Below are positions 1 through 16,910 of a stretch of DNA of 64,000 nt, piece by piece (within the stretch, counting starts at the first letter, position 1; the number at the start of each line of letters is the position of its first letter). Both the position numbers and the translations under genes were made by a program. Source of the stretch: a virus (taxonomy: Duplodnaviria; Caudoviricetes); the IMG/VR virus record IMGVR_UViG_3300031851_000001. One strand, 5' to 3'. The notes under the pieces are model-generated. The model saw only the letters and a program-made list of their open reading frames with translations. It had not been told where the DNA came from and did not search any database.

Positions 1-327
1 AGCGAACGTAAAGAGTTTATGATTACTGAATGCCATTATAGTGAGGATTTGCGTAAGCACGATATTTTAATATCACCTGGGATTACAAACTTTTATGACC
101 AACACACATTAAACGTATTCTTAGCGTTTCCAATTAAAGACGAAGAATATACTGTTACACTTAAATATGGTACGCCTTTAATGTCAATATACCCAATGCA
201 CGAAATGGAACTTGATATTAAAATGCATGAGGTAGAATCAAAAGAGAAATGGCATAGAATACAACACGTATATCCATCAACCTTTATCGGACGTTATCAC
301 TCCCGGAAACACACACGCAGTAAGTGA
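1..327 (+). CDS. Hypothetical phage protein, C-terminal part (frame is open from base 1, so 5'-truncated by the window)
   Basis: The frame runs without a stop from position 1 to 327. The PGI..F..QH..NV....GTPL..I.P pattern resembles a common uncharacterised T4-like phage family. It is the only plausible real plus-strand gene and converges on the rSAM cluster. Confidence 0.55.
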   Translation, partial: SERKEFMITECHYSEDLRKHDILISPGITNFYDQHTLNVFLAFPIKDEEYTVTLKYGTPLMSIYPMHEMELDIKMHEVESKEKWHRIQHVYPSTFIGRYHSRKHTRSK

Positions 328-1305
328 ATGGTGTTCCATATAAGATAGGACACCTTTATCAATACATGTCATTAAATTTTTACAAGAAGCACAATTGTCA
401 GTTTCACTTGAATAAGTCAACTGTGACATAAACTTATTTTCTTTTACTTGAGTCCATGACTCAATATCGTTTTCATCTTTGACCACAAAATTATCTGTAC
501 CAATTAAAGCAATATCATATACGAATGGTGTCCAAAAGAAACGTTCGTTACAATAAGTATAATTTAATTCTAAAGAACCACCTTGTGCTTGGTCAATAAA
601 TGTTTTAGGCATAAGGTCGTCGGCAAAGTCATAGTTTTTCCATTTCTCAATAAGATGCTTTTGCACTTTAGATTTAGGTGCTCGGAAGAATGATGGATTT
701 AAAGTAAGTATAGAATCAAACCGTTCCTCAACAAGTTTTGACATCTCGAGTACTTTATTATTCTCAACATCATCATTACCCATATTATATACCATATAAT
801 AATTTAAATCATCTGTCAACTCATTTAATATTCCTAATTTATATTCAAGTACATTCCAATTAACTGGCGGCTGCAGGGCTATGTTACAATCATACATAAA
901 TCCCTCGGCCTTTGGAATACTATTCAGCATTTCAATAATATTAAAATCAATCTTTTCTAATGTTGTAACGAATTGAATAGTAGTTACTTTACTTAAACAC
1001 TCTCGGAATGTTTCGTCTTTCAACAACTCGGTGATATTATTATTACCAAATAAATCAGTTGGACCAATATTAATGGTTGACACGCGATAGCCATTGGTAT
1101 TAAATAAATCAATGGCGTTGTTTAATCTATCAAATGATCCCATATTTGATCCGAGTTTATTGACAAAACAACCTTTACATTTAAACTCGCAGCCAGATAA
1201 TACTTCGCAATTAAATTGTACTTTGATTTCATGTCCTTCACTAAAGGATAAATCAAAATCTTTATCAGCTTGTGCAGCACGCTTATTGTTAGTAACTATT
1301 CCCAT
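277..1305 (-). CDS. Radical SAM protein (cluster paralog 5) with C-terminal Cys4 auxiliary-cluster motif
   Basis: CEFKCKGC = CX3CX2C near the N-terminus; IGPTDLF motif; C-terminal CASCKNLMTC-X16-C. Start moved from 1332 to the ATG at 1305 because GAGGT lies 5 nt upstream, inside the 3' end of the previous gene. Confidence 0.88.
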   Translation of the reverse strand: MGIVTNNKRAAQADKDFDLSFSEGHEIKVQFNCEVLSGCEFKCKGCFVNKLGSNMGSFDRLNNAIDLFNTNGYRVSTINIGPTDLFGNNNITELLKDETFRECLSKVTTIQFVTTLEKIDFNIIEMLNSIPKAEGFMYDCNIALQPPVNWNVLEYKLGILNELTDDLNYYMVYNMGNDDVENNKVLEMSKLVEERFDSILTLNPSFFRAPKSKVQKHLIEKWKNYDFADDLMPKTFIDQAQGGSLELNYTYCNERFFWTPFVYDIALIGTDNFVVKDENDIESWTQVKENKFMSQLTYSSETDNCASCKNLMTCIDKGVLSYMEHHSLTACVFPGVITSDKG

Positions 1306-2443
1306 GGTATACCTCATCATCATATAAACCAATTACATCTTTATTTAAGATGCATTCTTTTCTTCCATCAAACACAGTATCCATAATCATTGGAACCATT
1401 CTATTCGCACATATATTTAAATACTTACAACTGCCACACTCTTTTTCAGAACTTTTTTCAATTTGGCTATTGACAATCTCGTTCTTTTTGTTTAATATAT
1501 AATCAACAATATCGGCATCAGGTAACCAAAGCCAACTATTATCAACTTTAAAATCATCTGTATGGATTTGAGCATTCTCATATATGAATGGCGACAAATA
1601 CATATCTCCGTGGTATATACTAACTACAGAATAATGAAACGCTTTATGTGATACGTCACCTTGTAAGAAATGGAATTTGTTTTTAAACTTATGTGGATCT
1701 GCAGCCAATCGAGTTAACATATCATTCCATTCAAATAGTTTGTCTCCGTGCTTTGCGCTATGATTAAAAGAACGTACTACTGACGGTAATACTTCGATTA
1801 CTGTTTCATACCTAGCTCTAACAAATTCAATAGCAGGAAATAATATATCTTCTACACCTTGCACGATATTAGTAGCCATACTTATTTCAAAGTTTAAAGA
1901 ACTATTTTTAAATGTTTCAACTCTTTCATCAAGTGCATCTAGGTATACCTGATCATTCATTAATCTATTTAAATCCAAAGCAATTTGTACATCCCATGCT
2001 TCGACTACTTCGCCTAGCATTGAGTTTTCAATAGCTTTTATTTTACCTTCAATATCTTTTTCAGATAATGATCCGAGTATAGAACAGTTATGTTGGATAT
2101 TTCTATTATCTTCAGGCATCATGGATATGGCATCAGCAAGCCTTTGATTATTAATAATCTCTTCTAAATTTTGAGCACCATAAAAGTCGGTTGGGCCAAT
2201 CACAATGTCGTCTAATACAATATCAGTTCTATCTTTTAATTCAAATGCCAAGGAATGAAATGTTGCGATTGAGTTTGGGTTCCAATTACCTTTACGTTTA
2301 ACAAAACAACCCGGACACATATATGAACAACCTTCGAGTATTTCAAGGTTGACCTGTATTTTATATTCTTTCATATTGTCGATTGAAGTAAATTCCTCAC
2401 CTCGCCCACCGTCTACAATATTTTTCCAATCATTATTTAACAT
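1289..2443 (-). CDS. Radical SAM protein (cluster paralog 4)
   Basis: CSYMCPGC (CX3CX2C); IGPTDFY; YLSPFIYE; C-terminal CGSCKYLNIC-X18-C. Confidence 0.9.
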   Translation of the reverse strand: MLNNDWKNIVDGGRGEEFTSIDNMKEYKIQVNLEILEGCSYMCPGCFVKRKGNWNPNSIATFHSLAFELKDRTDIVLDDIVIGPTDFYGAQNLEEIINNQRLADAISMMPEDNRNIQHNCSILGSLSEKDIEGKIKAIENSMLGEVVEAWDVQIALDLNRLMNDQVYLDALDERVETFKNSSLNFEISMATNIVQGVEDILFPAIEFVRARYETVIEVLPSVVRSFNHSAKHGDKLFEWNDMLTRLAADPHKFKNKFHFLQGDVSHKAFHYSVVSIYHGDMYLSPFIYENAQIHTDDFKVDNSWLWLPDADIVDYILNKKNEIVNSQIEKSSEKECGSCKYLNICANRMVPMIMDTVFDGRKECILNKDVIGLYDDEVYHGNSY

Positions 2444-3590
2444 ATGATATATCCTTTAATCGTTTTAGTTCTGGATCGTCATCATCAGTAACTAAAAACT
2501 TTTTACGATAACCGTTCTTATCGTTTTCAACAGAATAACCATCCCATCCATACATTGTCTGAGCAGGACCATTATAATTGTTTATATTATTTAGCATATT
2601 CTCTTTTGGTGCTATGCAGCGGTCTACTCCAAGGTAATCCCTTAACATTATTATTTTTCTGTTATAACAACTAAAGAATAATGGGCAATCCTCGCATTCA
2701 GTACCTTTTGCTCTTTTAATTTGATGTTCAACCATTGGAACAACATCATCAAAAGATTTGACTTTAAACATATCATCATATATCGCCATGTTCTCATACA
2801 TAAATGGACTTAAATACCATTCACCGCGTTTGTAGTTTAATACAGTGTAATTAATACCTGCGTGAGAATGGTCTACCATAATATTGTTTAGCTTGGACTC
2901 TTGGTGCCATGTGCTAAAGTATTCGTTAAACTCATCAAGCGTTTTTAAGATTATGTTTGCTTTATGCGAACGAGATACTGACGGAATAAAATCTAATATA
3001 GTATCAAAACGTTTTACAGCCTGATCATGCAATGCCTCATAATCTAATCCATAATCTTTAATGTTAACAACAAACGTATAAGTAACCTCATGTTGAATGT
3101 GTGTATCTATATAGGCTAACATATCTGATATATGTTTTGTGTATTCGTCAGTAAAAAACTTATGTGGATTTGTAGCGATACCAATTTCTATTTCAGTATC
3201 TAAATTAATATTATCAATAAGGAAATCGCAAAACTTTTTAATATCACCATCAATAAGAGTAGAGACAAAAGCTAGGATAGGTGAGTTTTCATTAATGATA
3301 TCTACGAGTTCTGGCATTACTTGATAGAAATTTTCTGATGCTAAAAAGTCTGTAGGACCAATTAATATTTCATCAACAAGTATCCCTTGGTCAGTAATAG
3401 AACGTATGAACTCTTTTGCCATATATACTTGGCTTTTATCACTAGAGTTACCCCGTCGATGTACAAAGCATCCAGGGCACTTGTGGTGACAACCGTCTAG
3501 TACATCCATTTGAATTTTAACAGCGCTGACGGGCTTAGTTTGGGTCTCTGTCGTCATCTCATAATAGAGATTATTTTTAATCAGAGGCAT
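2433..3590 (-). CDS. Radical SAM protein (cluster paralog 3)
   Basis: CHHKCPGC; IGPTDFL; YLSPFMYE; C-terminal CEDCPLFFSC-X16-C, plus a ~55-aa C-terminal extension. Confidence 0.9.
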   Translation of the reverse strand: MPLIKNNLYYEMTTETQTKPVSAVKIQMDVLDGCHHKCPGCFVHRRGNSSDKSQVYMAKEFIRSITDQGILVDEILIGPTDFLASENFYQVMPELVDIINENSPILAFVSTLIDGDIKKFCDFLIDNINLDTEIEIGIATNPHKFFTDEYTKHISDMLAYIDTHIQHEVTYTFVVNIKDYGLDYEALHDQAVKRFDTILDFIPSVSRSHKANIILKTLDEFNEYFSTWHQESKLNNIMVDHSHAGINYTVLNYKRGEWYLSPFMYENMAIYDDMFKVKSFDDVVPMVEHQIKRAKGTECEDCPLFFSCYNRKIIMLRDYLGVDRCIAPKENMLNNINNYNGPAQTMYGWDGYSVENDKNGYRKKFLVTDDDDPELKRLKDISYVK

Positions 3591-4599
3591 ACATATATTC
3601 CTTTAATGCGACGCAGCTATCTAATCCTCGCGACTCCATATATAAATGTATATTACGTTCAGCACAACTCATCATATACTCGCAGCCATTACAATCATCA
3701 ACCTGTTGAGCATAATCTATATTTTCATATAAAGTATTCGCATCCATTGTTGTTTCAAAATTTGGAGTTCTTTGAATAATAACATCATACAAGAATGGAT
3801 TTAAATATAGTTTATTATTATAGAAGCTATAATTTTGGCAGCCATATCCATTAAACTTTGCATCAAAAAATGTATAAAGGTTAAGCCATTTCTTATCAAT
3901 ATCTTGCTCAATCATTTCACGTCTAAAGTTTGCAAGGTGTTGTTCTACTTTACCACGCGCGTTCCTATCTGTTAAAAACGACGGTGTAATTATAACTGGT
4001 GCATTATAGTCATCATATATCCGTTGACATAAGTCGTTATATGTGATACGCTTAAATACATCTTTATGATAATTAACTCTAAATTGAACTGAACCTAACT
4101 CAAACATTTTAAGTTTACGGTTCCAATCGTCTAGTTCTCCATCAAGGTACTTGTCTATATCTAAAACGATTTTAAAATCAATATCAGGTACTCTATGAAC
4201 ACCTTCATATAAACTCCATATCATATCAAGTTTAGTTCTTATCTCGGCATATGATTGAAGTAATGTTGATGTAAATCCAACTGCTGATATTTCGTAAAGC
4301 TTTTTCATATATGGATGTTTCATAATTTCATGGAAGTTCTCTGCATCAAAAATGTCAGTAGGTCCAATCGTTATCTCGTCAGGATAATATGCGCCGTCCA
4401 TTAATAAATTGTATAATGTTTCTAAGTATTCAGGTTTAGTAAGGTTTTTACGTGGAATAAAACATCCTGGGCACGACTGAGCGCAGCCATGTAATATGTC
4501 TAGGTTTATTTCAGTACGTAAGAAGTCTGTATTAATAGGGCTCTTATCTTTATCATACGTATAATAACCTGCATATGTTTTATTCAGTTTTACTATCAT
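3577..4599 (-). CDS. Radical SAM protein (cluster paralog 2)
   Basis: CAQSCPGC; IGPTDIF; YLNPFLYD; C-terminal CNGCEYMMSC-X16-C. Confidence 0.9.
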   Translation of the reverse strand: MIVKLNKTYAGYYTYDKDKSPINTDFLRTEINLDILHGCAQSCPGCFIPRKNLTKPEYLETLYNLLMDGAYYPDEITIGPTDIFDAENFHEIMKHPYMKKLYEISAVGFTSTLLQSYAEIRTKLDMIWSLYEGVHRVPDIDFKIVLDIDKYLDGELDDWNRKLKMFELGSVQFRVNYHKDVFKRITYNDLCQRIYDDYNAPVIITPSFLTDRNARGKVEQHLANFRREMIEQDIDKKWLNLYTFFDAKFNGYGCQNYSFYNNKLYLNPFLYDVIIQRTPNFETTMDANTLYENIDYAQQVDDCNGCEYMMSCAERNIHLYMESRGLDSCVALKEYMYASD

Positions 4600-5416
4600 C
4601 GGCTACACTAGCGGCATTGGCTTTAGCCTCTGCTTCGATTTCAGCTTGTAAATCTTCATCAGACTTTGGTTTTGGAATTTCAACGCTGTTAATAAACCCA
4701 GGAGGCATCATTGATAAAATGTTACTAGTAATATTACTTTGTGTCAATAAGAAAAACAAATCTTTACCAAAGTATGCAGGTTTATCATTATACATCTGTT
4801 TATTATATTCTTGTTTAAATCCAAGCATAGAACAAACTAATAGGAAACCATCCCAGCCATCTATAAGAAGGCGTGCAACGTTTGGACCACAATTTGCTGG
4901 CTTGTCAGTTACTTCAATTTGCTCAACAGCTTCTTTTACATCAACTTCAATTGCTTTGTTTTCATCTGATAAGTTTTCGTAAAATTTGCAGAGTGTGAAT
5001 GGAATAAGTTCAGCCATTGCATTACAAACATCTTCTATAAGTTCATAGTTTTTGTCTACGAAGTCGTGCAATTGTTCTTTACTAAAGAGGCCAAGTAATT
5101 GTTCTTCTAAGCCATTAAACTCATACATGTATCTTACTTTGATTGCCATTACAACAAACCGTGATAGCAGTGGTGCTTCTACGATAAAGTCTGATTTAAT
5201 ATATTCTATTAATAGTTCTTCGTCAACCTGCGCAAAGGTTGTTTTAAAATTAGTATTGGCCAAATAGATTAGAATATGTTTGGCTGATAACTTTTCTTTT
5301 GATGCTAAATAATCTACCCATAAAACAAAGTTTTCGTTGTCTTCTTTTAATTTATATATTTCAACTAAATTTTGCGGTGCTAATGGCAGCGTATATAAAG
5401 TTTGCTCTTCACTCAT
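4580..5416 (-). CDS. Hypothetical protein embedded in the rSAM cluster (278 aa, acidic, probably helical)
   Basis: Long ORF, co-directional with and overlapping the downstream rSAM gene by 20 nt. No motif recognised. Confidence 0.75.
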   Translation of the reverse strand: MSEEQTLYTLPLAPQNLVEIYKLKEDNENFVLWVDYLASKEKLSAKHILIYLANTNFKTTFAQVDEELLIEYIKSDFIVEAPLLSRFVVMAIKVRYMYEFNGLEEQLLGLFSKEQLHDFVDKNYELIEDVCNAMAELIPFTLCKFYENLSDENKAIEVDVKEAVEQIEVTDKPANCGPNVARLLIDGWDGFLLVCSMLGFKQEYNKQMYNDKPAYFGKDLFFLLTQSNITSNILSMMPPGFINSVEIPKPKSDEDLQAEIEAEAKANAASVADDSKTE

Positions 5417-5431
5417 AATAAAATCACTTTC

Positions 5432-6535
5432 TTATATCAATGGGTATTTATGAATTAAATATGGAATTCTGTTTTGACGTTTTGAAAAGAACTGAACATC
5501 TGTGTTAATTAATGCCAAGTCTTCTCTAATATTATCTGTGTTAAAGTTTCTTTCTAAAACTTTTTTAACAATAGGGAACACGTTATTGATTTCAGTATAT
5601 AAATCCATGTATTCCCAACCGTCAGCAGTCGTATCAGCTTTATTTTGATGAACGGCTATAAAGGCAGCGTCGTCTTTAACTTTATTCCACATTTCTTCTA
5701 ATTTATAAAACGCTAATGTATAGTTAGATTTATTAGCAGCATTTACATATACGTCTTTAAAGAATTGTTGTTTATCTGTAGCCCAGCCATTTTCTTCAGT
5801 TGCATTAGCATTCATATAATCAATAACTGACATAATATATGCCGAGTAGTGACGACGTGAAGTAAAGTGTTCCATAACATCTTTTGCCATAACTGGTGAA
5901 TGAATAGTAAATTTTTCAACAATCAATTCTGAAACGCCTGCACATGAATAGAAATCGTTTAAGAAGAATAGCAAGTCATAACTAAAGTTTTTACCATTCT
6001 GATATGTAATTACCCAAGGTGTTTCGCCTTCAGCATTTAATAAAGTATTTGTATGGTTTCTAACATCGTTATAAACTGTCGAGTTGCTCATTAAAGATAA
6101 TACTAAATCTTGGTTAATAACTGCTTCCATATAATGAGCAACCATCGCATTAATTGTTGTTGCATCTGCGTCAGGATAAAAACCACATGATGTTAACAAA
6201 CCAGCAGTATATTTTGCAAATACTTTAATCATATCCTCTTCGTCTGTAAACATAAGAATACGCTTATCACTATTTTGAATATAAGTAGGATTGGCAATAG
6301 TATCCCATTCTTCAAAATCTAATAGTTCTGATGAGCCTGATCGTGCACCTTCTGCCAGCGCTTCATACTCAGCAGGCTGAAGAAATGAGTCTACAAGGTC
6401 AGGCTGTACAATAGTAATTCGTCTTGGTTCAGCAGTGTGGTAAAAAGAATTTAATTCACCAATTACTGTTTCAACGTTTTGTGTATTCGTAATATACTTT
6501 TTATTATTTAAGTAATATAAACTCTGCCCAATCAT
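5432..6535 (-). CDS. Hypothetical protein embedded in the rSAM cluster (367 aa)
   Basis: Long ORF coupled to the upstream rSAM gene by an ATGA start/stop overlap at 6532-6535. No motif recognised. Confidence 0.75.
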   Translation of the reverse strand: MIGQSLYYLNNKKYITNTQNVETVIGELNSFYHTAEPRRITIVQPDLVDSFLQPAEYEALAEGARSGSSELLDFEEWDTIANPTYIQNSDKRILMFTDEEDMIKVFAKYTAGLLTSCGFYPDADATTINAMVAHYMEAVINQDLVLSLMSNSTVYNDVRNHTNTLLNAEGETPWVITYQNGKNFSYDLLFFLNDFYSCAGVSELIVEKFTIHSPVMAKDVMEHFTSRRHYSAYIMSVIDYMNANATEENGWATDKQQFFKDVYVNAANKSNYTLAFYKLEEMWNKVKDDAAFIAVHQNKADTTADGWEYMDLYTEINNVFPIVKKVLERNFNTDNIREDLALINTDVQFFSKRQNRIPYLIHKYPLI

Positions 6536-7707
6536 GATCTTACTCCTAATTTTTCTATTGCGTCATCGTTCCAAGTAAAATCATACGGGTTATATTCTGC
6601 AAGGACATCTTTGTTCAATACACAACCGTTGACGTTTAATGATTCTTGGGCTTCAAAGATTAATCTGCTTGCACAGGCAACTGCAAATTTACAGTCAGCA
6701 CAATCTTTTACTTTACTAGACCTATTTATACCTTTTGTCACTAGTTCATTTTTACGATCTAATATTTGCTCGAATGTTAAACCAGTAACATCTAAATTTT
6801 TATTACCTAAGAAAAACGCTTGCTCATGCAGCATTACATTTAGGTGTGTAGTTGGACCATTTTCTCCTGGGACAATAGTAAGTCCAACAAAGTTAATTGA
6901 GTTACAATAAAGATTAGCCATTGACATAACGGTTTCTTGCGCATTATCTTTATCAATAACTCTACCAAGGAAATCGTTCCAACCAAATAAATTCTTTCTT
7001 TGTATCAATTGTGAATTGGCTCTAGAGAAAGCAGGGTTCATTTCTACAATTGTTTCATATTCGTTTACAGATTTTTGAATAATTTTATTATAAGTTTCTT
7101 TATCAATTTTTCTACCAACAACGTTAGAAGCCTGTAATGTCCACGACCAATCCATTTGTTTTGGTGTATTATTTTTAAAGAACTCTACCTTTTCCATAAC
7201 GTTATTAAAATATTCGTCATCGTTTAACATCTGATCTACTCTACCGATTGGCATAATAAATTCGATAATCATTTCGCGACGATACTTATCCTCATCATCA
7301 AGTACGGCAAAGATTTCTTTTACTTTATCCATAGTAGCCAAATCAAATTTAGCAGGTGCCGCGATACGAGCGCCAGTATGTTCTCTCATAATTTCTTGGA
7401 CTACTGAATTATTTAATACTGACTCTGTATTTTTAGCAGTGAAAAAGTCTGTTGGTCCAATAACGAACTCTCTTAAGTTAAGTCCAGTTCTTTTTACACC
7501 ATCTGCTAATTCTTTTGCTCTATCAATAATTTGTTGGTTCATAGCAGGGTCTATGTTTTTATCAACGAAACAACCTAAGCAGCCGTGATTACATCCTGCT
7601 AAAACTTCCATTTGAATTAGAACATCAAACTTAGTAGCATCTGACGGTGTTAGGCTTTCTGGACCAGAGTACCGCATTTGCTTACAATATGATTTTTGCA
7701 TTGACAT
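6532..7707 (-). CDS. Radical SAM protein (cluster paralog 1)
   Basis: CNHGCLGC; IGPTDFF; C-terminal CADCKFAVAC-X16-C. Start moved from 7800 to the ATG at 7707 (MSMQKS), 1 nt after the stop of the upstream small gene. The longer track ORF overlaps that gene. Confidence 0.9.
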   Translation of the reverse strand: MSMQKSYCKQMRYSGPESLTPSDATKFDVLIQMEVLAGCNHGCLGCFVDKNIDPAMNQQIIDRAKELADGVKRTGLNLREFVIGPTDFFTAKNTESVLNNSVVQEIMREHTGARIAAPAKFDLATMDKVKEIFAVLDDEDKYRREMIIEFIMPIGRVDQMLNDDEYFNNVMEKVEFFKNNTPKQMDWSWTLQASNVVGRKIDKETYNKIIQKSVNEYETIVEMNPAFSRANSQLIQRKNLFGWNDFLGRVIDKDNAQETVMSMANLYCNSINFVGLTIVPGENGPTTHLNVMLHEQAFFLGNKNLDVTGLTFEQILDRKNELVTKGINRSSKVKDCADCKFAVACASRLIFEAQESLNVNGCVLNKDVLAEYNPYDFTWNDDAIEKLGVRS

Positions 7708-7708
7708 C

Positions 7709-8092
7709 TTATCTTCTTCCTCTCGAACTGTGGCAACTAGTATGACAACTTGCGTGACAATAGTATGCGTTAATAGTTCTGTTTGACATTCTTCCTTCAA
7801 TTAGATCAACTGTTCTTCTAGTTATATCTTCCAATGTATCAACAATATCCTGTCCGTAAATAATATTACCACTATTGATACCACCATCTACATAGTTATC
7901 ATATACATAGTAGTTTGCATTAACATATTCAAATCTATGGTAATGCCACTGTCCTCTAGTATAACTGGTAGCAGCACTACTAGCTCTTACATATGCGTTA
8001 ACATAAATTCCAACCGTTCTATCGAACGTTCTTAATTGTTGACCACTATATGTTCTTACCCACGACCTAACGTCATTTCTATCCATAGTCAT
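7709..8092 (-). CDS. Putative rSAM substrate/precursor B, 127 aa, ending YYCHASCHTSCHSSRGRR
   Basis: Paralog of 8092..8472. C-terminal (C-H-x-S)x3 repeat. TAATG coupling with the upstream paralog. Sits immediately upstream of the first rSAM gene. Confidence 0.8.
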   Translation of the reverse strand: MTMDRNDVRSWVRTYSGQQLRTFDRTVGIYVNAYVRASSAATSYTRGQWHYHRFEYVNANYYVYDNYVDGGINSGNIIYGQDIVDTLEDITRRTVDLIEGRMSNRTINAYYCHASCHTSCHSSRGRR

Positions 8093-8472
8093 TAGCGGCG
8101 CCCTCTCGAACTATGACACGAAGAATGGCAACTTGCGTGGCAATAATATGCATTAATAGTTCTGTTAGATATTCTACCTTCGCATAAATCAACCGTTCTA
8201 CGAACAACGCTACGAATAGAATCAATAACATCACCAGAACGAATAATTCCGCCAGTGTATATACCGCTATCCAGATAATTGTTATATACATAGTAGTTTG
8301 CATTTACGTATTCAAACCGCGTATAATGCCATTGACCTCTGGTATAACTTGTTCCCCAGTTAGAACCTCTAACATAAGCGTTGATATAAAATCCTACGGT
8401 TCTATCAAATGTTCTTAATTGTCGACCACATTGGTTTCTTACATTTGTATTTAACTGTGCATACGTTGGCAT
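8092..8472 (-). CDS. Putative rSAM substrate/precursor A, 126 aa, ending YYCHASCHSSCHSSRGRR
   Basis: About 75% identical to precursor B over the last ~109 aa (hand count). Starts 1 nt after the stop of the long fibre gene. Confidence 0.8.
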   Translation of the reverse strand: MPTYAQLNTNVRNQCGRQLRTFDRTVGFYINAYVRGSNWGTSYTRGQWHYTRFEYVNANYYVYNNYLDSGIYTGGIIRSGDVIDSIRSVVRRTVDLCEGRISNRTINAYYCHASCHSSCHSSRGRR

Positions 8473-8473
8473 A

Positions 8474-11400
8474 CTATACTTTAACCTCTACTTCACCATT
8501 TTCACTATCAGATATCGCAATACCAATAATATCAAAGCTATTTATACCAGCAGTACCATAGTCTACGGCACGGCCTTTACCATCACGATCAGCAATAATC
8601 CATTGACCTTTAGTTGCATCGCCATTAATAAGAACTGGAATACGTCCTTTAAGAGCAACGAATGGGTTCATCTTAGACTCAATAGAGTCATCGTTGTCAT
8701 ATTCAATATGCTCATTCATTCTGTATGCAGGATTTGTAGAAACCGCACCAGCAACTGGCATTCCGGGTTGATACAATGTTACTTCTTTATCGCCGCCGAT
8801 ACCTAGGATATACCCAGGACCATAAATCGCGTCTGCTTCATATCTCTCTGCAAGGTCAGCCCATCTTGCTGACGTAGCCGTACCAACAAACACACCATCG
8901 TTTGCGATATAAGATCTATCAGAACCATTTTGTCTAAACTGACAAATTCTGTTTGAGTTTCCGCCTGCAACGATATAGAAACGGTTTGAGTGATATTCAA
9001 TTTTACCAACGTCGTTTCCTGGGTTACCTGTCCAGCTTTCGTTACCTGATTCTTCAAATCTAATACATGGTGAATAACCATCTTGGTGGCGAGTTCTTAA
9101 CTGCCATTGTCCTGCAGCATTTAAATCACCGGACCATGTTCTGTCACCATACATCCAACGACACATTGTACCGTTATATGTCGCTCTAAGTTGGAAAGAC
9201 ATAGATGAAGAGTTATTGTTACCAGTAGCAGCCCAATACTGACCTTGATAAGAATAAAAGTGTCCACCTGTACCTTGGTTATATAATCCATTGCGTGCTG
9301 AATCATTTCGGAGCCAACTCCTAGCATAAATATCGTTGCCTCTCATACCTGTATTAAAGTTAGAAAACGATGCTGGATCACAATAATAACCGGTGTTGTT
9401 TGAGTCATAGAAGATAGGCGCACGGAAGCTAAATCCTGAGTAAGCATAGTTTGCATCACCATAAACTCTAAACAAGTCAGAGTTACCAATACCACCAGTT
9501 GCCTGACCGTGTCGGCCAATATAGAAGTCTGCGCCAGAAGTATTGTTGTTATTTGAGTCTAAGTTAATATACACAGAACCATATGAGTTGATACGAATAT
9601 CGTCAGAAGTGTTACCATTAAGATCTCTAGCAGAGATTGAGTGGTTTGTGCTGTTATCACCGTATAAGGTAATAAAGTCACCACGATCACGCATATCAAA
9701 CTGGTCAGCTCGTACAACATTCATTTGAGATGTAGATGCAGGGTCTGTATAACGACCCGTGTTATTATTGTCATAGAATATTTGAGCTCTTAATGAACTA
9801 CGTGCTTGTAATGAGTTATTTACATAAACATCATTAGCACCTAATGGATCAGTCGCATTGTTGATTGACATAACCTGATTATTCATGTTGTAGTCATCAT
9901 AGAAACGCATACCATTATAGTTTGCATTAGCACCAAACTTAATACCTGTATGGAAAGCAATTCTTAAATCAGGGTAACGATATGACCAACCACCGCCTTC
10001 ACGGTAAATAGCATAAGCAGCTGATTCATTAGATGAAAAGTATAAACCAAACGTATCGTCTTGTGATACATCATCTTTATGTATAAACCTATTTGCTCGA
10101 ACATCGCCAGCAAAACTGTTGTCACCGGCTGGATTTAAGAAGTATGAAGAGTTGTTACGATCGTAATAAACATCGGCATACATATTACCATATACTTCAG
10201 TTGTACCACCGCGAGTTCTTAATGCCCATCCTGCACTATTATTAAGGAAACCAATATCATTCGAGTTATTTGCATATACATAACCTCGAATAGTACCGGC
10301 GTTTTCATCTCTAAATCGTATACCATTAGCAGATGAACCACCAGCAATGTTCCAATAGTCATCATTATCTGAATAGAAATGCTGACCTGTTGCAGTGTTA
10401 TATAAACCTCTACCATTTGTATCGTTACGGAACCAACCATCGTTATATACTTCAGAACGAATATCAAGTGTGTGCATTACCGATGTACTAGCAAAGTCAC
10501 CATAATAACCTGTGCTATCTCTATCGTAATATCTGCCAGCGTAAGCTCCGCCTGTTACGAATACATTACCGTCACCACGAACGAGAAGATTTGTTGTTCC
10601 GGATAATCCGCCATCTTTAAATGCGATGTCTTCACCACCCGATGTAGCAATAATTAAATGATTATCGTTTGTATCAGTAGCTTGGATATAACCACGAACA
10701 TTACCAGCACCCGTAATAAATTGAGCTTCACCACCATCAGCAAACTGAATAACATCAACTTTTGATGTATTTGATGGATCCATATAGAAAGACGTATTAT
10801 CTGAGTCAACTAATCTACTTGCATAGAAGTATGAACTTGTACCACCACCTGGGTTAGCGTTATAGATAGCAATATCAGAATAAGAAGAATAGGCTGTACC
10901 TGAGTTCCATGACTGTTGCCATAGACGCATACCACGACCAGACTTTTTAAACATCAATAAGTTATCTGAACCACCAGAAGAGTCTGTGTAAGATCTTAAG
11001 TGTAAGTAATCGGCATATGGTGCAGTGTTATCGTTGTTCCAAGATGTGAAACCAAACGTTAGTCGACCCGCAGTATCTTCATTTGGTTCAATAATACGGT
11101 TATCTTTTCGTAACAATGTTTGAGCATAACCATCAACATTACCTTGGATTACGTTATCAACTTGTAGTGTTAATAGTCTTGAAGTACCGTTACCATCAAT
11201 TTTATATGCAGTGTTATCACTATCATACCAAATTGGTGAACGTAACTGATTAGTACCTAAGAAGAAACCATCTTTAGTAGAGGCTTGTTCTGTACCAGCC
11301 CAATGAAGTTCTGTATCACCTGCTTGGCGATAGATCGTAGCCCACTGATTGTTCGTATCGTTATAGATACCAGCAATACCAGCTCCACTTGACATGAATA

Positions 11401-14400
11401 CCCAGTCATCGTTAATAGCATAACCTGCGTAACCACCTTTATTACCAGTTACACTAATGGAACCATAATTACCAGTAGATGTATCTAATTGATAAGTTGA
11501 GCCACCAAATTGAACTGCGTTTGCACGAAGAACATTAGTAAGAGATGTTGAAGCAGGATCTAAATAATAAGCATTATCGTCTGAGTCATAGAACCGACTT
11601 GCATAAGAACCGTTTAGAGCAGTATGCGTACCTGTTACAACAACATTACGAGACATAGCCCAATCACCATTAGCATCAGTCCAGTTATCGTCAGTAACAA
11701 ATCTTAGTCTGTCTGGGTTAGTACCCTCTGCCATTCTAAGCATTTGAGTTCCACCAGCAACCAACTGCATATCGTCAGCGCCAATAAATCTGATATATGT
11801 ATTTGTATCACCATTATGTCTGATATATTCATCAGCACGTATTTCGTTAAATACAGATGTTGAAGCAGGGTCAGCATAATAAGCTGAGTTATTAGAGTCA
11901 TAAAACCTTTGAGCATATGAATAACGTCCAGCCCAAACATCACCGTCAGACTCAACACGTAAACGATATGTACCATTACCGGCGCCAGATGTAAATTGTA
12001 AATTACCACCAGAATTTGTTGCTAAGTCATTTGGTGACTCATAAATTTGCCATAGGTTTCCGCCGTTCCATGCTAGTCCTTCAGACGGTCCCGGATCGTT
12101 GAATGTTAATTTGTTTACGTTATTAATATTACCATTTGTCCAATCCCAGTTACCTGCGACTTTAGATGGACCTTTTGGTTCAATATAATAGTTAGTATCG
12201 TTAAGATCTCTAAACCTACCAGCATCAATAATATTTGCTGATATGTTGTCTGCAGAAACATCACCAGTAACAGTAAGATCCCCACCGATTGAAGCATCAG
12301 TAACGACAGTTAATCCTTCAGCTTTTATACTCGATTGTACATCAACTCTCTTTAGAATTGGTGGACCAAATTCACGAGTTGCACCGTTTGGCGCAAAGTT
12401 CATAAGAGAAACTAATCTAACAAACCGAACACCTGCACCATCTGAACCATTAAATGGCGTATGGGTAGTTGGAAGCGTATGCTCACCTTTATATTCAGTC
12501 CAGCCTGTGGCGGTGTGGTCAACCGCAGATGCCGCGAAGTATACAATACCATCGTTAGCAGCAATTGGATTTTTATCTTTATCGTATTGTCTAACACCTA
12601 AGTAAAATAAACCGCCAGTACCACTGATGCGTCGTACTGCCTGTTCTGCATAAATTGTTTCTCCCGGCTCAACTGGAATAAAGTCAGAGTCAAAATCTCT
12701 GTAACCGTTAGTTCTTAATACATAACTTGATGCGAATGGGCCATCACCATTTAAAACATAATCACTGGTAGATGTAGTTGCGCTATTTTCAATACCTTGC
12801 ATTGGTTGGATAACTCGTTTATCCCAATAATCTGATGCATCAAACATTTTCATATCAGCAAGGCCAGAGCCATACGTTTTTAACAATCCAAGATTTTCAT
12901 TACCACCATTAAGAGCAAGTGATCCAAATATACCAGCGCCATAAGCTTGTATGTCACCATTTTCTGAGAACCAGAAACGCTCACCTATATTATTAAACGA
13001 AATACCCATCGCAGAGCGAGAGTTTCTTGTTTGGTGGAATATAGATGGGAAGTTAGCATCAGCAGTAGTATTTTGTAAAACGATCAAACGTTGTTGTGCA
13101 GACTTAACTTCAAGTGGATATGTAGTATTATTAAAGATTGCGCTATCGCCTGCCTTAACAGATTTAAGTCTAGATTGACCAGACGGTTGCATATAAAATG
13201 CAGCGTTATTTAAATCATAGAATATTGGAGAACGCATACTGTTTGGAGCAGAACCATAACCGTTTTCAGCACCAATTTGGTGAATGTTATTTGAATGTAA
13301 TCTTGTAAAGTTATTTCTGTTTGCAGTCAGTGACCATTCATTATCAGTCTCGTTATACAGACCCATCTCTGTAGCACCGCTGGATATAAAGCCCCAGTCA
13401 TTACTAATCATATAACCTGCATAACCATCTCTTTCGCCTTCAACCATAATAGTCCCTTTAGGACCTGATGGTGAGTCGATAGTTAGAGAACTGCCATCCA
13501 TTTGGATTTGATTTGTTCTAACAACATTAAGTATAGATGTTGAAGCAGGATCTAAATAATAAGCATTGTTTCCTGAGTCATAATAACGTGGAGCGTAAAC
13601 ATCAAGGTTAAAGTCAGCAGAGTTATCATCAATGTTTAATCTCTGTGTATTATTGATAAACAATTTATAGATACCAGCGGCTGAGAAACCGAAGTATGTA
13701 TCTTCATCACCTTTATGTCTAATATAATCGTCTAAGTCAATTCTATTCATTACTGATGTACCAGCAAAGTCACCATAATAAGCGTTGTCATTATAATCGT
13801 AATAAGTAGGGAAATATGCCATGTCATTGGCATCGGCTGCTGATATGCCGCCGTTGAAATTCACTCTCTTATTGAATAGGAATATTGCTCTGTCTGTATC
13901 AAACTGAGCTGACCCTGCAACCTTAGATCCAATATCTAAAGTACCAGTTGGTGTTGTGAACCTATGAGCATTGGCTGTATTTGGCTCAAACTTGTAAGTT
14001 CCACCAGCATCAGAGAATATTGGAGAACGCATATCTGTTGCAGCTTCAGCATATGTTGAATATACATCAAGCTGTGCGGTTCCACCGGCAGTAAATATAA
14101 TTTGGTCAGCGCCAAAACCAATTTTAGTATTAGTATTTCCGTCGTGTATAATTTCACCGACAAGACTTATATTATTCATTCGTGATGTACTAGCAAAGTC
14201 ACCGTAGAATAAAACATCATCTGCATCTAGGTATTGAGCGAATGAAGCATTACCTGTTGATGTGAGTAATTTATTATTTCTAATTCTAAGATTGTTGGCA
14301 TCGTTCATATAGAAACCGCCACCTTGACCAAAGCCAAGTTCATCCATTCTTAGGAATGTAGCAGTTCCATTACCGACAACATATGCATCATCAGTACCAT

Positions 14401-16861
14401 TAAGTTGAAGCGATCCATCTATGTGAAGTTTACTATCTGTTTTTGTTCCGCTATTTAATATCGGTGTATTATCATGTTGAGTATATGCGACTGAGTCATT
14501 ACCGATTGTAATATCCCCTGTGCTAAGCATTGCTAATCTAGTTGATGCACCACTATCGTAGAAGTAAACTCCTTGGTCTGCATCAGATATAAAGTAAGCA
14601 TTCCTTGAGTTATCACCACGAATAGAGAACGCCGCTGCGCCATCTGATAAGAACTCTGCCCAATAAGCATTTTTACTTTGGTATGGATTACCACCAATGT
14701 CAATTCTATTAAGTGATAAGAGCGATAGCCCGCCATTATTACCAGCGATTGAAATTGTAGGGTTAGTAGTTGCACCTAATCCTGCGTATGGCGCGATCAT
14801 AATTCCGCCAGTGCCTGAGTTATTATCTACAAGATTAAAGTCTGTGCCTGCTCCAACATTAATACGACCACCAACTCTAAGTGAGTCAGAAGCACCAGTT
14901 TGACCAAGATCCAAATAATTTGTGGTTCCTGATGTATCATAATATACCGGTGCTTTCATATTGTCAACGGCAGTTACACCAGAATCTCTTACGAATAATC
15001 TATCAGAACCACCAGTTCTTACTTTAAATTCGTTTGCAGCAGAGAATGTAATAAGTGTATCAGCATCTCCTTGATGAATAATATCACCTTGTAAACTAAT
15101 ATTATTCATTACCGATGTACCAGCAAAGTCACCATAATATGAGTTATTATCAGAGTCGACAAATTGTGGTGCAAGAACATTATACGTGAATGTTGCATTT
15201 GAATTATTAAGAGTTAATCGTGCAGCGCCATTTGTTGTAAATGTTTGCGTATCTGCGCCAAAAGAAATCTTATTATTAGTATCACCATTATGGAATAAGT
15301 CATCGTTAATCCCAAGGTTATTAAATACCGATGTACCGGCAGGATCAGCATAAAAGTTATTGTCACTTGAGTCAAGGAACCTTGGTGCGATTAAGTCAAC
15401 TGATGATGTAACCGACGTATCAGTGATTGCTAATCTTGTTGCTCCACCTGTGTTTAAATTGATTGTGTCGGTATCAAATGATAACTTAGTATCGGTATCA
15501 CCATTATGGAAAAGATCGCTGTCAATTCCAATCGTATTCATTACAGATGTACCAGCAAAGTCACCAAGATATGCATTATTACCGCTATCTAAATAGCGAG
15601 GAGCCTTTACATCAACTAATGATGTTACGTCAGTGTCAGTAATTAATAACCTTTGACCTCCACCAGTATAAACTTCAAATTGGTTAGCAGCCGGGAAATT
15701 AATATATGTATCAGCATCGCCATCGTGCGAAATTGTCCCAACAAGACTGATGTTATTTAACCTAGATGTATCAGAAGGCCAAGATAGATATGTATTATCA
15801 GCAGAGTCTAAAAATTTATCAGCAATAAGATTACGACCAACAGTCCAATCTCCATTTAAATCTGAATATGTTTGATAAGCAAATACGCCATCAAGGAAAC
15901 CAATTTTACCATTGTCTGATGCCATAACTCTATTGTTACCCGCACCACGCATAGTAAGTAGTGCTGAGCCAGTTCCATCACCAATAGCAACTGTACCTTC
16001 AAACTCTAAGTTACCTGTAGCAACATCGTTAACATCTGAGCGAATAAACTGAGCAGCTTCTAATCCATCAACCGTGTCAGCATCAAATAAGTTACCTGCA
16101 CCTTCATCATCAGTTGTAATAATACGACCTAAGTCTGTACCTCCTGATATTAGTTTAAACCAATCATTTGTTTCATCCCATTGTAAAGATGAATTTGGTA
16201 AATTACCACGAAGAACTTCCCAACCAGCATTTTCTGTCGGAGCTCCTGTAGTAAAATTACTATTAAGAGTAATTAAGTTATCGGCAATTAAAACTGTTTC
16301 TGATTGAACTTCGGTACGTGTACCTTGTACTGTAAGGTTACCAGTGATAATATAATCACCGTCCAATGTATCATTTTGGTCAGAACGAACAAACGATAAT
16401 GAGTCAATTCCATCAAGAAAATCGGCATCTAAGCCTGATCCTGTACCATCGTTACCACTATACCAAACTGGTACGCCGTTAATGGAAGGAACATTAGTAA
16501 AATCCGCTTCAGTAGTATTAATTGTAAGCTGGACGTTATTACCGGCTTTGAATACCAAACCGCTTGCCGTATTATCATTAAATTTTATTTCGTTTGAGCC
16601 TGAGGTATTGTAAATACTGTAGTCACCACTACCTGTATTTTTAATTCGTAATGCACCTACGCCGCCTGCAAAATCCATTAAAGGAGTATCAATACCTCCT
16701 GTGTTCTCAACAGTAATTGGAACCGATGAGCCTGTGCTTGTAAGTTTGGCTGTGCCTGATACTTGTAATTTATTTACACCATCATCAGAGGATGTGCCGA
16801 CAAGAACGTTATTCTCCGATTGAAGACCGTTCTTTACTATGAATTTCTTATCATTTGCCAT
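8474..16861 (-). CDS. Very long tail fibre/receptor-binding protein (~2795 aa) with C-terminal peptidase G2-like autocleavage chaperone
   Basis: N-terminal KKFIVKNGL motif typical of marine T4-like fibre proteins; ~18 YDS.NNAYY.DPASTS repeats; C-terminal ARWADLAERYEAD...GRIPV pattern typical of G2-type intramolecular chaperones. The ATG at 16861 is spaced correctly from a GGAG Shine-Dalgarno site; the GTG at 16870 is too close. Confidence 0.85.
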   Translation of the reverse strand: MANDKKFIVKNGLQSENNVLVGTSSDDGVNKLQVSGTAKLTSTGSSVPITVENTGGIDTPLMDFAGGVGALRIKNTGSGDYSIYNTSGSNEIKFNDNTASGLVFKAGNNVQLTINTTEADFTNVPSINGVPVWYSGNDGTGSGLDADFLDGIDSLSFVRSDQNDTLDGDYIITGNLTVQGTRTEVQSETVLIADNLITLNSNFTTGAPTENAGWEVLRGNLPNSSLQWDETNDWFKLISGGTDLGRIITTDDEGAGNLFDADTVDGLEAAQFIRSDVNDVATGNLEFEGTVAIGDGTGSALLTMRGAGNNRVMASDNGKIGFLDGVFAYQTYSDLNGDWTVGRNLIADKFLDSADNTYLSWPSDTSRLNNISLVGTISHDGDADTYINFPAANQFEVYTGGGQRLLITDTDVTSLVDVKAPRYLDSGNNAYLGDFAGTSVMNTIGIDSDLFHNGDTDTKLSFDTDTINLNTGGATRLAITDTSVTSSVDLIAPRFLDSSDNNFYADPAGTSVFNNLGINDDLFHNGDTNNKISFGADTQTFTTNGAARLTLNNSNATFTYNVLAPQFVDSDNNSYYGDFAGTSVMNNISLQGDIIHQGDADTLITFSAANEFKVRTGGSDRLFVRDSGVTAVDNMKAPVYYDTSGTTNYLDLGQTGASDSLRVGGRINVGAGTDFNLVDNNSGTGGIMIAPYAGLGATTNPTISIAGNNGGLSLLSLNRIDIGGNPYQSKNAYWAEFLSDGAAAFSIRGDNSRNAYFISDADQGVYFYDSGASTRLAMLSTGDITIGNDSVAYTQHDNTPILNSGTKTDSKLHIDGSLQLNGTDDAYVVGNGTATFLRMDELGFGQGGGFYMNDANNLRIRNNKLLTSTGNASFAQYLDADDVLFYGDFASTSRMNNISLVGEIIHDGNTNTKIGFGADQIIFTAGGTAQLDVYSTYAEAATDMRSPIFSDAGGTYKFEPNTANAHRFTTPTGTLDIGSKVAGSAQFDTDRAIFLFNKRVNFNGGISAADANDMAYFPTYYDYNDNAYYGDFAGTSVMNRIDLDDYIRHKGDEDTYFGFSAAGIYKLFINNTQRLNIDDNSADFNLDVYAPRYYDSGNNAYYLDPASTSILNVVRTNQIQMDGSSLTIDSPSGPKGTIMVEGERDGYAGYMISNDWGFISSGATEMGLYNETDNEWSLTANRNNFTRLHSNNIHQIGAENGYGSAPNSMRSPIFYDLNNAAFYMQPSGQSRLKSVKAGDSAIFNNTTYPLEVKSAQQRLIVLQNTTADANFPSIFHQTRNSRSAMGISFNNIGERFWFSENGDIQAYGAGIFGSLALNGGNENLGLLKTYGSGLADMKMFDASDYWDKRVIQPMQGIENSATTSTSDYVLNGDGPFASSYVLRTNGYRDFDSDFIPVEPGETIYAEQAVRRISGTGGLFYLGVRQYDKDKNPIAANDGIVYFAASAVDHTATGWTEYKGEHTLPTTHTPFNGSDGAGVRFVRLVSLMNFAPNGATREFGPPILKRVDVQSSIKAEGLTVVTDASIGGDLTVTGDVSADNISANIIDAGRFRDLNDTNYYIEPKGPSKVAGNWDWTNGNINNVNKLTFNDPGPSEGLAWNGGNLWQIYESPNDLATNSGGNLQFTSGAGNGTYRLRVESDGDVWAGRYSYAQRFYDSNNSAYYADPASTSVFNEIRADEYIRHNGDTNTYIRFIGADDMQLVAGGTQMLRMAEGTNPDRLRFVTDDNWTDANGDWAMSRNVVVTGTHTALNGSYASRFYDSDDNAYYLDPASTSLTNVLRANAVQFGGSTYQLDTSTGNYGSISVTGNKGGYAGYAINDDWVFMSSGAGIAGIYNDTNNQWATIYRQAGDTELHWAGTEQASTKDGFFLGTNQLRSPIWYDSDNTAYKIDGNGTSRLLTLQVDNVIQGNVDGYAQTLLRKDNRIIEPNEDTAGRLTFGFTSWNNDNTAPYADYLHLRSYTDSSGGSDNLLMFKKSGRGMRLWQQSWNSGTAYSSYSDIAIYNANPGGGTSSYFYASRLVDSDNTSFYMDPSNTSKVDVIQFADGGEAQFITGAGNVRGYIQATDTNDNHLIIATSGGEDIAFKDGGLSGTTNLLVRGDGNVFVTGGAYAGRYYDRDSTGYYGDFASTSVMHTLDIRSEVYNDGWFRNDTNGRGLYNTATGQHFYSDNDDYWNIAGGSSANGIRFRDENAGTIRGYVYANNSNDIGFLNNSAGWALRTRGGTTEVYGNMYADVYYDRNNSSYFLNPAGDNSFAGDVRANRFIHKDDVSQDDTFGLYFSSNESAAYAIYREGGGWSYRYPDLRIAFHTGIKFGANANYNGMRFYDDYNMNNQVMSINNATDPLGANDVYVNNSLQARSSLRAQIFYDNNNTGRYTDPASTSQMNVVRADQFDMRDRGDFITLYGDNSTNHSISARDLNGNTSDDIRINSYGSVYINLDSNNNNTSGADFYIGRHGQATGGIGNSDLFRVYGDANYAYSGFSFRAPIFYDSNNTGYYCDPASFSNFNTGMRGNDIYARSWLRNDSARNGLYNQGTGGHFYSYQGQYWAATGNNNSSSMSFQLRATYNGTMCRWMYGDRTWSGDLNAAGQWQLRTRHQDGYSPCIRFEESGNESWTGNPGNDVGKIEYHSNRFYIVAGGNSNRICQFRQNGSDRSYIANDGVFVGTATSARWADLAERYEADAIYGPGYILGIGGDKEVTLYQPGMPVAGAVSTNPAYRMNEHIEYDNDDSIESKMNPFVALKGRIPVLINGDATKGQWIIADRDGKGRAVDYGTAGINSFDIIGIAISDSENGEVEVKV
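9360..15820 (-). repeat. Dispersed protein repeat (F/Y)xD(S)xNxxYYxD(P/F)A(S/G)TS, ~18-19 copies; several extend to a ~72-aa unit with H.GD.DT...F
   Basis: Read from the translation, e.g. RYLDSGNNAYLGDFAGTSVMN, RYYDSGNNAYYLDPASTSILN, RFYDSDDNAYYLDPASTSLTN, IFYDSNNTGYYCDPASFS. Confidence 0.9.
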
Positions 16862-16898
16862 TCGGTTCACTCTCCCCAGTTAGGCTTATTCTTTATTG

Positions 16899-16906: not shown

Positions 16907-16910
16907 ATGA

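Follow-up and report, generated by a model that had tools for sequence, protein, structure and literature searches.

What would a phage do with five radical S-adenosylmethionine (rSAM) enzyme-like genes inside its baseplate and fibre module? The question is raised by a 64,000-nt stretch of viral DNA (IMG/VR record IMGVR_UViG_3300031851_000001; "the window" denotes this whole stretch), part of an uncultured marine T4-like myovirus, in which nine genes at 277-8472 lie within a T4-like baseplate and fibre module. A first-pass annotation, made from the letters of the sequence, had proposed here a dedicated post-translational modification pathway like those of peptides that are made by ribosomes and then modified post-translationally (RiPPs), with five paralogous rSAM enzymes (rS1-rS5), two substrates (preA and preB) and two further proteins (U367 and U278). 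The gene order that it gave (preA, preB, one rSAM gene, the genes of the 367-aa and 278-aa proteins, four more rSAM genes) was borne out by the coordinates of the open reading frames (ORFs), which are all on the minus strand and abut or overlap. Its statement that preA and preB both end in three C-H-x-S units followed by RGRR was likewise correct. Our survey of related loci led us to a reading that we hold at roughly 55%, namely that the cassette carries out a RiPP-like maturation of a fibre-associated virion protein through its (CHxS)3RGRR tail, and not the production of a released peptide. Our choice of the tail as the modified site is an inference, and so is what we say below about chemistry, function and position in the virion. 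The genes, beginning with the fibre gene upstream, are as follows.

8474-16870, minus strand: giant fibre protein of 2798 aa (ORF), directly upstream of the cassette with a spacing of 1 nt
8092-8472, minus strand: preA, 126 aa, with a conserved N-terminal helix, a small alpha/beta body and the C-terminal (CHxS)3RGRR (ORF, homologue alignment, AlphaFold2 model)
7709-8092, minus strand: preB, 127 aa, a paralogue of preA with the same tail; the tandem pair is kept in window-type loci
6532-7707, minus strand: rS1, type-A radical-SAM-like; the ATG start at 7707 is probable; own orthologue clade (n=28)
5432-6535, minus strand: U367, accessory protein of 367 aa, present in 35 window-type loci
4580-5416, minus strand: U278, 278 aa, PHROG 20767 family, the tailed protein's universal partner, with a predicted contact to the N-terminal helix of that protein
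3577-4599, minus strand: rS2, type-A radical-SAM-like; own clade (n=19)
2433-3590, minus strand: rS3, type-A radical-SAM-like; own clade (n=19)
1289-2443, minus strand: rS4, type-A radical-SAM-like; own clade (n=15)
277-1332, minus strand: rS5, type-A radical-SAM-like (ORF, tree, BLAST)

A search in which the tail played no part as a criterion gave 146 homologues of preA from metagenomes. The 120 that were listed end in 16 residues, three C-H-x-S units and R-G-R-R, that vary little or not at all, in contrast to the bodies, which are 44-99% identical. In the DNA of the tails (122 distinct sequences) Ser and Arg are each encoded from both of their codon families, which argues for selection on the peptide and not on a DNA or RNA motif. 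In IMG/VR, preA led to ten loci; in every one a fibre gene homologous to that of the window is followed by the nine genes in unchanged order, with enzymes 64-97% identical to those of the window and preA/preB 50-85% identical. A degenerate DNA pattern of the tail matched more than 116 viral contigs and 18 contigs of GTDB genomes. At least 137 unique tailed proteins, 60-310 aa long, are encoded there; ten or more clusters of bodies without mutual relation at the BLAST level can be told apart among them, and the tail is the same in all. No match was obtained by tblastn against phages with preB, nor with a class-0 tailed protein. Minor variants of the tail were also seen: the tailed proteins of L019 and L023, contigs of Bacteriovoracia metagenome-assembled genomes (MAGs), have four CHxS units before RGRR and not three, and gp170 of Agrobacterium phage Atu_ph07 (L146:8068-8958) ends in RSRR, not RGRR.

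The body that carries the tail is predicted to be folded. The AlphaFold2 model of preA has a predicted local distance difference test score (pLDDT) of 85 and forms a small alpha/beta domain, for which searches of the PDB with Foldseek, of the Atlas and by a wide VIA search returned no known fold, the best Z of 5.7 belonging to unspecific helical matches. Such a domain would fit a functional protein better than a disposable leader. In the homologue alignment the N-terminal helix is near-invariant at N8, Q12, G16, Q18 and L19-D23, and by eye the other body classes of tailed proteins start with a comparable stretch (e.g. ...IVNRF...V). Neither a signal peptide nor a peptidoglycan-binding domain was found in the tailed proteins.

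The CX3CX2C proteins encoded next to tailed genes form two families, type A (146 sequences) and type B (231 sequences). The first-pass annotation took the five window paralogs, all of type A, for rSAM-SPASM RiPP maturases; this could not be upheld, as the paralogs failed the curated tests. The core enzymes are of type B and, to judge from related phages, lie just outside the window. Type B comprises four single-copy orthologue groups, B1-B4, with 79, 71, 44 and 37 members, and shows the full SPASM-like Cys pattern. One member passes the SPASM model TIGR04085 (30.2 bits, cut-off 27), some pass PF04055 (37.8, 30.6 and 31.7 bits), and the NCBIfam models of PapB, DynA, anSME and QhpD give weak, full-length matches below their cut-offs. 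Genes for rSAM enzymes are present in 130 of 142 loci; the other 12 are short or have the tailed gene near a contig end. The core of the cassette is the tailed protein, a partner of the U278 family (~240 aa) and B1-B4, and it recurs in more than 140 loci.

These loci belong to marine T4-like phages, to jumbo phages of Ralstonia (RSL2/RSF1), Burkholderia and Agrobacterium, and to chromosomes of Bdellovibrio-like predators. The commonest architecture runs fibre, cupin, B1, tailed protein, U278, a ~370-aa protein, B2, a ~200-aa protein, B3, 2-oxoglutarate (2OG) oxygenases, B4 and a ~136-aa protein, sometimes with one type-A gene in addition, and in nearly all loci of architecture I B1 lies directly before the tailed gene. 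The commonest order is collinear with ORF066-ORF081 of the Ralstonia jumbo phage RSL2, where ORF068 (186 aa) ends in the same tail. Amid the same RSL2 cassette, ORF073 and ORF074 (L001 10104-11253) look by eye like two dihydrofolate-reductase-like proteins.

In phages of the window type, B1, B3, B4, a 133-aa protein and B2 are encoded in a convergent operon that ends at the left edge of the window. The window holds the following part of it.

1-327, plus strand: 3′ end of a 235-aa gene, PHROG 7084 (a family of unknown function), the last gene of the convergent operon in related phages

The operon beyond these positions lies outside the window and is known from the related loci L066, L118, L130, L137 and L143. 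A cupin and a 2OG oxygenase were scored in the two fullest window-type loci, and comparison of the convergent 235-aa protein with the cupin, 2OG and 202-aa proteins showed no homology. Taking the five type-A genes of the window together with B1-B4 of the convergent operon of related phages, the complete system of this phage type is predicted to be one of nine rSAM genes. This fits the count in a T4-like marine genome with 12 rSAM genes, for which no explanation was offered (Nishimura et al., 2017; PMC5332604).

Identity among the five type-A paralogs is only 20-25%, and each is 64-97% identical to its own orthologues. All five share invariant L..GC...C.GCF, which holds CX3CX2C, the motif IGPTD, and four C-terminal Cys in the form CX2CX5C...C; CX3CX2C is kept in 155 of the 156 family members of the fetched loci. 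The CX3CX2C motif and the C-terminal Cys cluster noted in the first pass were thus confirmed, the cluster consisting of four Cys, and it was the rSAM-SPASM class that failed at the thresholds (scores below). Exactly four C-terminal Cys are enough for one auxiliary cluster, not for the full SPASM motif, in which seven to eight Cys serve two auxiliary 4Fe-4S clusters. Homology of type A to the genuine rSAM/SPASM enzymes of the cassette is indicated by profile-profile comparison only: hhalign aligned its N-terminal 150 residues with type B over 153 columns (probability 94.5%, E 8e-8), and the GPTD of type A falls in the stretch that holds the GGE of type B. We read rS1-rS5 as a putative divergent rSAM family with one auxiliary cluster and with GPTD replacing GGE. 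A profile of the five paralogs found no match among PDB sequences.

In a maximum-likelihood tree of type A, rooted at the midpoint only, each window paralog heads its own clade (support 0.8-1.0, 15-28 sequences), composed entirely of window-type phages, and the clades of rS1, rS2 and rS5 have neighbouring branches made up of copies of locus L037 and of Bdellovibrionota, suggesting that the type-A duplications are old. Among the window paralogues rS5 has the best BLAST match to most single-copy type-A genes elsewhere, including RSL2 ORF071; in the tree the single-copy genes of other phages form a separate clade, apart from rS5. Type A seems to be accessory and not part of a universal core, since 13 of the 24 loci that have all of B1-B4 lack it (seven have one copy, two have two and two have five). 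A search for the IGPTD motif led to 52 fetched loci, 42 of which carry CHxS-tailed genes upstream, and these 42 are all the loci with enough upstream DNA; in the other ten the contig ends less than 3.2 kb upstream, short of the position of the tailed gene. Frequent occurrence of the rSAM clade without CHxS-tailed neighbours, which the first-pass annotation had named as the finding that would speak against it, was therefore not seen. Of its proposal, a dedicated modification pathway around the CHxS-tailed proteins gains from this linkage without exception in the sampled loci; maturation of a fibre-linked virion protein fits better than a classical RiPP system, as discussed below.

The U278 family (PHROG 20767) is present in 118 loci and usually adjoins the tailed gene. 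Homologues are encoded by RSF1, Burkholderia phages FLC6, FLC8 and SURPRISE13, Pseudomonas phage pPa_SNUABM_DT01, Sinorhizobium phage Phosso and Agrobacterium phage Atu_ph07. The AlphaFold2 model of U278 (pLDDT 92) is mostly helical, and its fold matches in the PDB, AFDB clusters and BFVD were restricted to uncharacterised phage homologues, including those of Atu_ph07 and RSF1. A wide VIA search gave a best Z of 5.0, with the rSAM structures 4k36 and 9gm3 at Z 3.8, too weak to use; no fold of the RiPP recognition element (RRE/PqqD) or other known fold was recognized. When U278 was modelled together with preA, the interface score ipSAE reached 0.64, against 0.01 for the best of three controls; this mark is reached by 58 of 80 solved complexes and by 2 of 110 mismatched pairs. 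Agreement between runs is at least 41% of contacts, with a partner pLDDT of at least 39, and the confident contacts join residues 1-23 of preA, the N-terminal helix, to residues 188-200 and 235-238 of U278. The model supports binding of U278 to the N-terminal helix of the tailed protein, as would be expected of a leader-recognition protein. The window copy has an acidic, Ala/Glu-rich C-terminal extension of ~30 residues (4580-4660), modelled as a long helix, that most homologues (about 230-250 aa) lack.

For U367 no relatives were detectable outside window-type loci. Pfam, NCBIfam and PHROG gave noise or PHROGs of unknown function for the 367-aa and 278-aa proteins, and an ESM Atlas feature search with both yielded nothing above lead level. 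U367 and the ~370-aa protein that takes the same position in other architectures are mutually exclusive, and hhalign, at a probability of 35%, did not show them to be homologous.

Two observations bear on where the tailed proteins may end up. One concerns the C-terminal domain of the fibre protein, ~190 residues (about 8474-9030), which accompanies the cassette: for 93 of the 139 tailed-protein genes, a fibre ORF that has it is present no more than 2.5 kb upstream. The domain's matches in PHROG are 19602 (tail fiber protein) and 6427, and it has no match among PDB sequences or in Pfam. The other comes from Atu_ph07, whose protein AUZ94952.1 (296 aa) ends in CHSSCHASCHNSRSRR and is encoded between a B1-like gene and a U278 homologue. 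We identified it as gp170 by counting from gp180 (the 13,350-bp 'T4-like structural protein'), with the sizes of gp176 and gp177 as a check, and the mass that we computed for it, 31,894 Da, is the one given for gp170 (31.89 kDa). In the analysis of Atu_ph07 virions by electrospray ionization tandem mass spectrometry, gp170 was detected with 8 unique peptides and 35% coverage (PMC6102473, Table S5). It turned up in gel bands 1-9, with its highest abundance in the top one, band 1, in which proteins of 75-139 kDa have their maxima, and its neighbours gp171 (rSAM) and gp169 (the U278 homologue) are absent from Table S5 (PMC6102473). These data support, at moderate confidence, gp170 being a particle protein that runs as a high-mass species, either stable in sodium dodecyl sulphate (SDS) or covalently linked.

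Several of the tail matches in genome contigs come from Bdellovibrionota MAGs. In a Pseudobdellovibrio MAG (L148; G001:C4:180000-199999) the cassette is chromosomal, on a 299-kb contig, and adjoins the type IV pilus genes PilQ/PilM and a phosphonate ABC transporter. As phages and predators both attack Gram-negative envelopes, this correlation, and it is a correlation only, suggests that the product acts at the surface of the target cell. The Pseudobdellovibrio cassette also encodes an extra B12-binding radical SAM protein of 575 aa that was not seen in the phage versions.

In the pathway that we propose, the genes would be transcribed late, together with the fibre gene. U278 would grip the N-terminal helix of the tailed protein, in the manner of a RiPP leader-binding protein, and present the C-terminal tail to the rSAM enzymes. 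B1-B4 would then modify Cys, His or Ser of the tail by hydrogen-atom abstraction with 5′-deoxyadenosyl radicals, the likeliest products being Cys thioethers (as with PapB and QhpD) and/or three-residue cross-links from His to Ser (as with HaaB and HtkB). Further oxidation, such as hydroxylation, may be added by the Fe/2OG oxygenase and the cupin. The five type-A enzymes would be old, specialised accessories, each probably with its own site, on the tail or at further sites. The intact protein would be neither cleaved nor exported and would join the virion, probably at the fibre of the upstream gene or close to it, to act at the host envelope. A more specific version falls a little short of an even bet in our view: an assembly of up to nine rSAM enzymes and Fe/2OG oxygenases, common to Bdellovibrio-like predators and tailed phages of several unrelated lineages and guided by a leader-binding protein of new fold, would build a cross-linked or cofactor-like tail on a host-contact protein, and the GPTD family would have expanded to five specialised enzymes in the window lineage.

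The same genes can be explained in other ways. Phage fibres and spikes bind Fe or Zn through repeated His, as in the His-x-His iron sites of T4 gp37, and three Cys and three His at a fixed spacing of four residues are good ligands, so that the tail could itself be a Cys/His metal or Fe-S site, e.g. across a trimer, with the rSAM enzymes acting elsewhere (on the fibre, on a sugar or lipid, or in cluster insertion). A very stable oligomer would account for a 32-kDa homologue at the top of an SDS gel, and the co-travelling C-terminal domain of the fibre is in keeping with it. We nevertheless consider a bare metal site unlikely: metal binding alone does not explain why Ser and RGRR are as invariant as Cys and His, B1 directly precedes the tailed gene almost throughout architecture I, and the cellular copies keep tailed protein and enzymes without an adjacent fibre gene. 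A classical RiPP or peptide cofactor, with the body as a long leader and the tail cut off to serve as chelator, redox cofactor or antibiotic, has in its favour the invariant C-terminal core beside a variable body, which resembles the logic of PqqA and MftA, the many tailoring enzymes (rSAM/SPASM, 2OG oxygenase, cupin) and the predicted binding of the N-terminal helix by a partner, like that of a leader peptide. It appears distinctly unlikely, because the architectures inspected yielded no gene for a protease, a transporter or immunity, and the window cassette none for a protease or transporter, the body is modelled with confidence as a domain and is under selection, the genes sit in late fibre operons, and the coverage of 35% for the Atu_ph07 homologue from virions refers to the whole protein. 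A folded body, a homologue in virions and the lack of a protease or exporter in the cassette fit maturation of a protein better than a released RiPP, and the first-pass view of preA and preB as RiPP-like precursors was revised accordingly.

It is also conceivable that the matured protein is an injected or envelope effector directed at a host barrier, e.g. competing with or mimicking HxsA-like periplasmic gatekeepers of DNA entry. The host HXS defence does use an rSAM-matured periplasmic protein with basic HxS repeats (PMC13128918), the cassette is common to phages and to envelope-breaching predators, where it lies beside type IV pilus genes, and the tail ends with three Arg. This idea is purely analogical and we think it very unlikely, in view of the lack of Hxs family membership by sequence and of a signal peptide or peptidoglycan-binding domain in the tailed proteins. 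Most improbable of all appears a loss of enzymatic function in the type-A paralogs, which would then be Fe-S scaffolds or chaperones for fibre assembly. That they stay below the Pfam and NCBIfam thresholds, lack GGE and are dispensable in many loci would agree with such a role; paralogs otherwise 20-25% identical have, however, kept all seven Cys, GPTD and other positions invariant, and each is strongly conserved among its orthologues, a pattern expected of active sites.

A number of observations count against maturation of a fibre-associated virion protein as we propose it. The evidence from virions is that of a single study and of one distant homologue, and the Atu_ph07 preparation, purified with polyethylene glycol, also contained plainly non-structural proteins such as ribonucleotide reductase, topoisomerase and terminase (PMC6102473). 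The migration of gp170 in band 1 may reflect an SDS-resistant oligomer and not a covalent link. The chromosomal cassette of the predators has no adjacent fibre gene, so the system is not strictly one of virions. In the model of the U278-preA complex the fold of the partner itself is uncertain (pLDDT about 40) and the tail is not placed. The best type-A scores are 18.2 bits for PF04055 (cut-off 29.5) and 13.9 bits for TIGR04085 (cut-off 27); with these curated rSAM and SPASM thresholds failed and GPTD in place of GGE, enzymatic activity of type A is an assumption. Finally, O2-dependent oxygenases and O2-sensitive rSAM enzymes make an odd pairing in one pathway.

How does the cassette relate to known systems? 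Kinship with SCIFF, Hxs and triceptide systems, as raised in the first pass, was shown by none of the model scores, and assignment to the SCIFF, Hxs, triceptide or anSME families was rejected, with all scores below the cut-offs. The nine window proteins did not match HxsA-D (TIGR03976-03979) at E values up to 1, and the window enzymes did not match the SCIFF/ranthipeptide models (TIGR03973/03974, PapB). The only Hxs match was that of B3 of L050 to HxsC, at 27.7 bits against a cut-off of 267.9. For B1 of L050 the best NCBIfam match was PapB (NF047865; 52.6 bits against 340, E 4e-14, full-length), and the SCIFF maturase scored 21.2 against 425.

By analogy, HXS defence is the closest published counterpart. 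In this antiphage system HxsA is matured by the rSAM enzymes HxsB/HxsC with the small partner HxsD, and the modification, +8 Da on SHRSS, is needed for function at the cell envelope (PMC13128918). Both systems would combine a full-size protein with tandem His-x-Ser units, more than one rSAM enzyme and a non-enzymatic partner. Unlike in HXS, each unit of the cassette has an invariant Cys, the units lie at the extreme C-terminus and are followed by RGRR, a signal peptide or peptidoglycan-binding domain is lacking, five to nine rSAM enzymes plus oxygenases are present, and the carriers are phages and predators, not a host defence locus. The ranthipeptide maturases (PapB with PapA/freyrasin; the SCIFF pair CteB/CteA) are similar in that rSAM/SPASM enzymes act on tandem short repeats with Cys. 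They differ in that the acceptor Asp at +4 of PapA is absent here, the substrate here would be a folded protein of 125-300 aa, and the five enzymes of the window belong to a different, non-SPASM family. His-x-Ser would fit the aromatic-X-X three-residue motif, often tandemly repeated, of triceptide synthases such as HaaB and HtkB, the latter of which links His C2 to Lys C-beta (PMC11499958); the matches to YhhB, AmcB and GrrM/OscB are, however, very weak (E 1e-6 to 1e-3) and far below the cut-offs, and triceptide families do not require an invariant Cys. As with QhpD/QhpC and anSME, rSAM/SPASM enzymes would modify Cys of a protein that stays intact as a protein subunit, yet those systems use a single enzyme each, are cellular and metabolic and have different motifs, and the scores are low (33 bits against 453 for QhpD, TIGR03906; 35 against 349 for anSME, TIGR03942).

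A full-text literature search found no description of the cassette, only passing annotations of rSAM genes (PMC5332604, PMC8066314); for FLC6 and RSF1 these name rSAM, Fe-S oxidoreductase, cupin and 2OG genes in generic terms (PMC8066314). The first-pass remark that the system was not a recognised one therefore stands as far as the searched literature goes. Maturation by rSAM enzymes is known for peptides (RiPPs) and a few cellular proteins, and as far as we found the literature holds no case from a virus particle. If the more specific version of our reading is true, enzymatic covalent maturation by radicals would have its first example among virus-particle proteins. Confirmation would show phages devoting 10-15 kb to the covalent chemistry of a protein in contact with the host. 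It would also bring a new substrate motif, a new rSAM family (GPTD for GGE, a single four-Cys auxiliary site) and a new leader-binding fold, and would link phage adsorption and entry with the biology of predatory bacteria. The cassette bears on the Fe-S demand of marine T4-like phages as well. The question is directly testable, since carriers are available in culture (RSL2/RSF1, the FLC phages, Atu_ph07, pPa_SNUABM_DT01 and Phosso).

The window contains the following promoter-like sites.

8539-8546, minus strand: TATAAATA, a T4-type late-promoter-like motif and putative promoter in the 3′ end of the fibre gene, 67 nt before the preA ATG
6723, 8539, 16899, 19411, 23319, 28901, 40598, 50643 and 58733, all minus strand: sites of TATAAATA in the window

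All nine copies are on the minus strand, i.e. the coding strand of the structural module, and five of the nine immediately precede structural genes, in short gaps, as T4 late promoters do. Their total count is not above chance; the bias in strand and position is striking. This placement suggests that the cassette is transcribed late, with the fibre gene. Scans of the window for sigma-70 promoters and terminators gave results at chance level. Contigs from four RNA-seq libraries (four studies) match 1-17000, with the cassette and the fibre gene, patchily at 99-100% identity, which speaks for presence only and not for transcription, as carry-over of DNA is possible.

The start of rS1 was revised. 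The ORF finder called a TTG start at 7800 (6532-7800), which would give an overlap of 92 nt with preB. The start in homologues corresponds to the ATG at 7707, a single base past the stop codon of preB, and so the real gene is probably about 6532-7707, encoding 391 aa. The final codons of preB, AGA GGA AGA AGA TAA (7707-7724, minus strand), end one base before this ATG, and the codons of RGRR double as a purine-rich, Shine-Dalgarno-like stretch for rS1. Across the 122 distinct tails AGA and GGA are the majority codons at the RGRR positions, and CGN also occurs.

Beyond the cassette, PHROG matches of the ORFs correspond to baseplate hub gp5-like and wedge gp6-, gp7- and gp8-like proteins and to tail fibres. 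Among cultured phages, phiN3 and phiM12 of Sinorhizobium have the closest homologues of gp6 (40% identity). No DNA near-identical to the window was found among GenBank phages, and marine metagenome runs of at least nine studies contain such DNA. Large fibre and structural genes follow one another at 8474-48967 (2798, 701, 1294, 1566, 4017 and 1786 aa), and the 2798-aa fibre protein contains many copies of a repeat resembling D-S-x-N-x-x-Y-Y-x-D-P-A-x-T-S.

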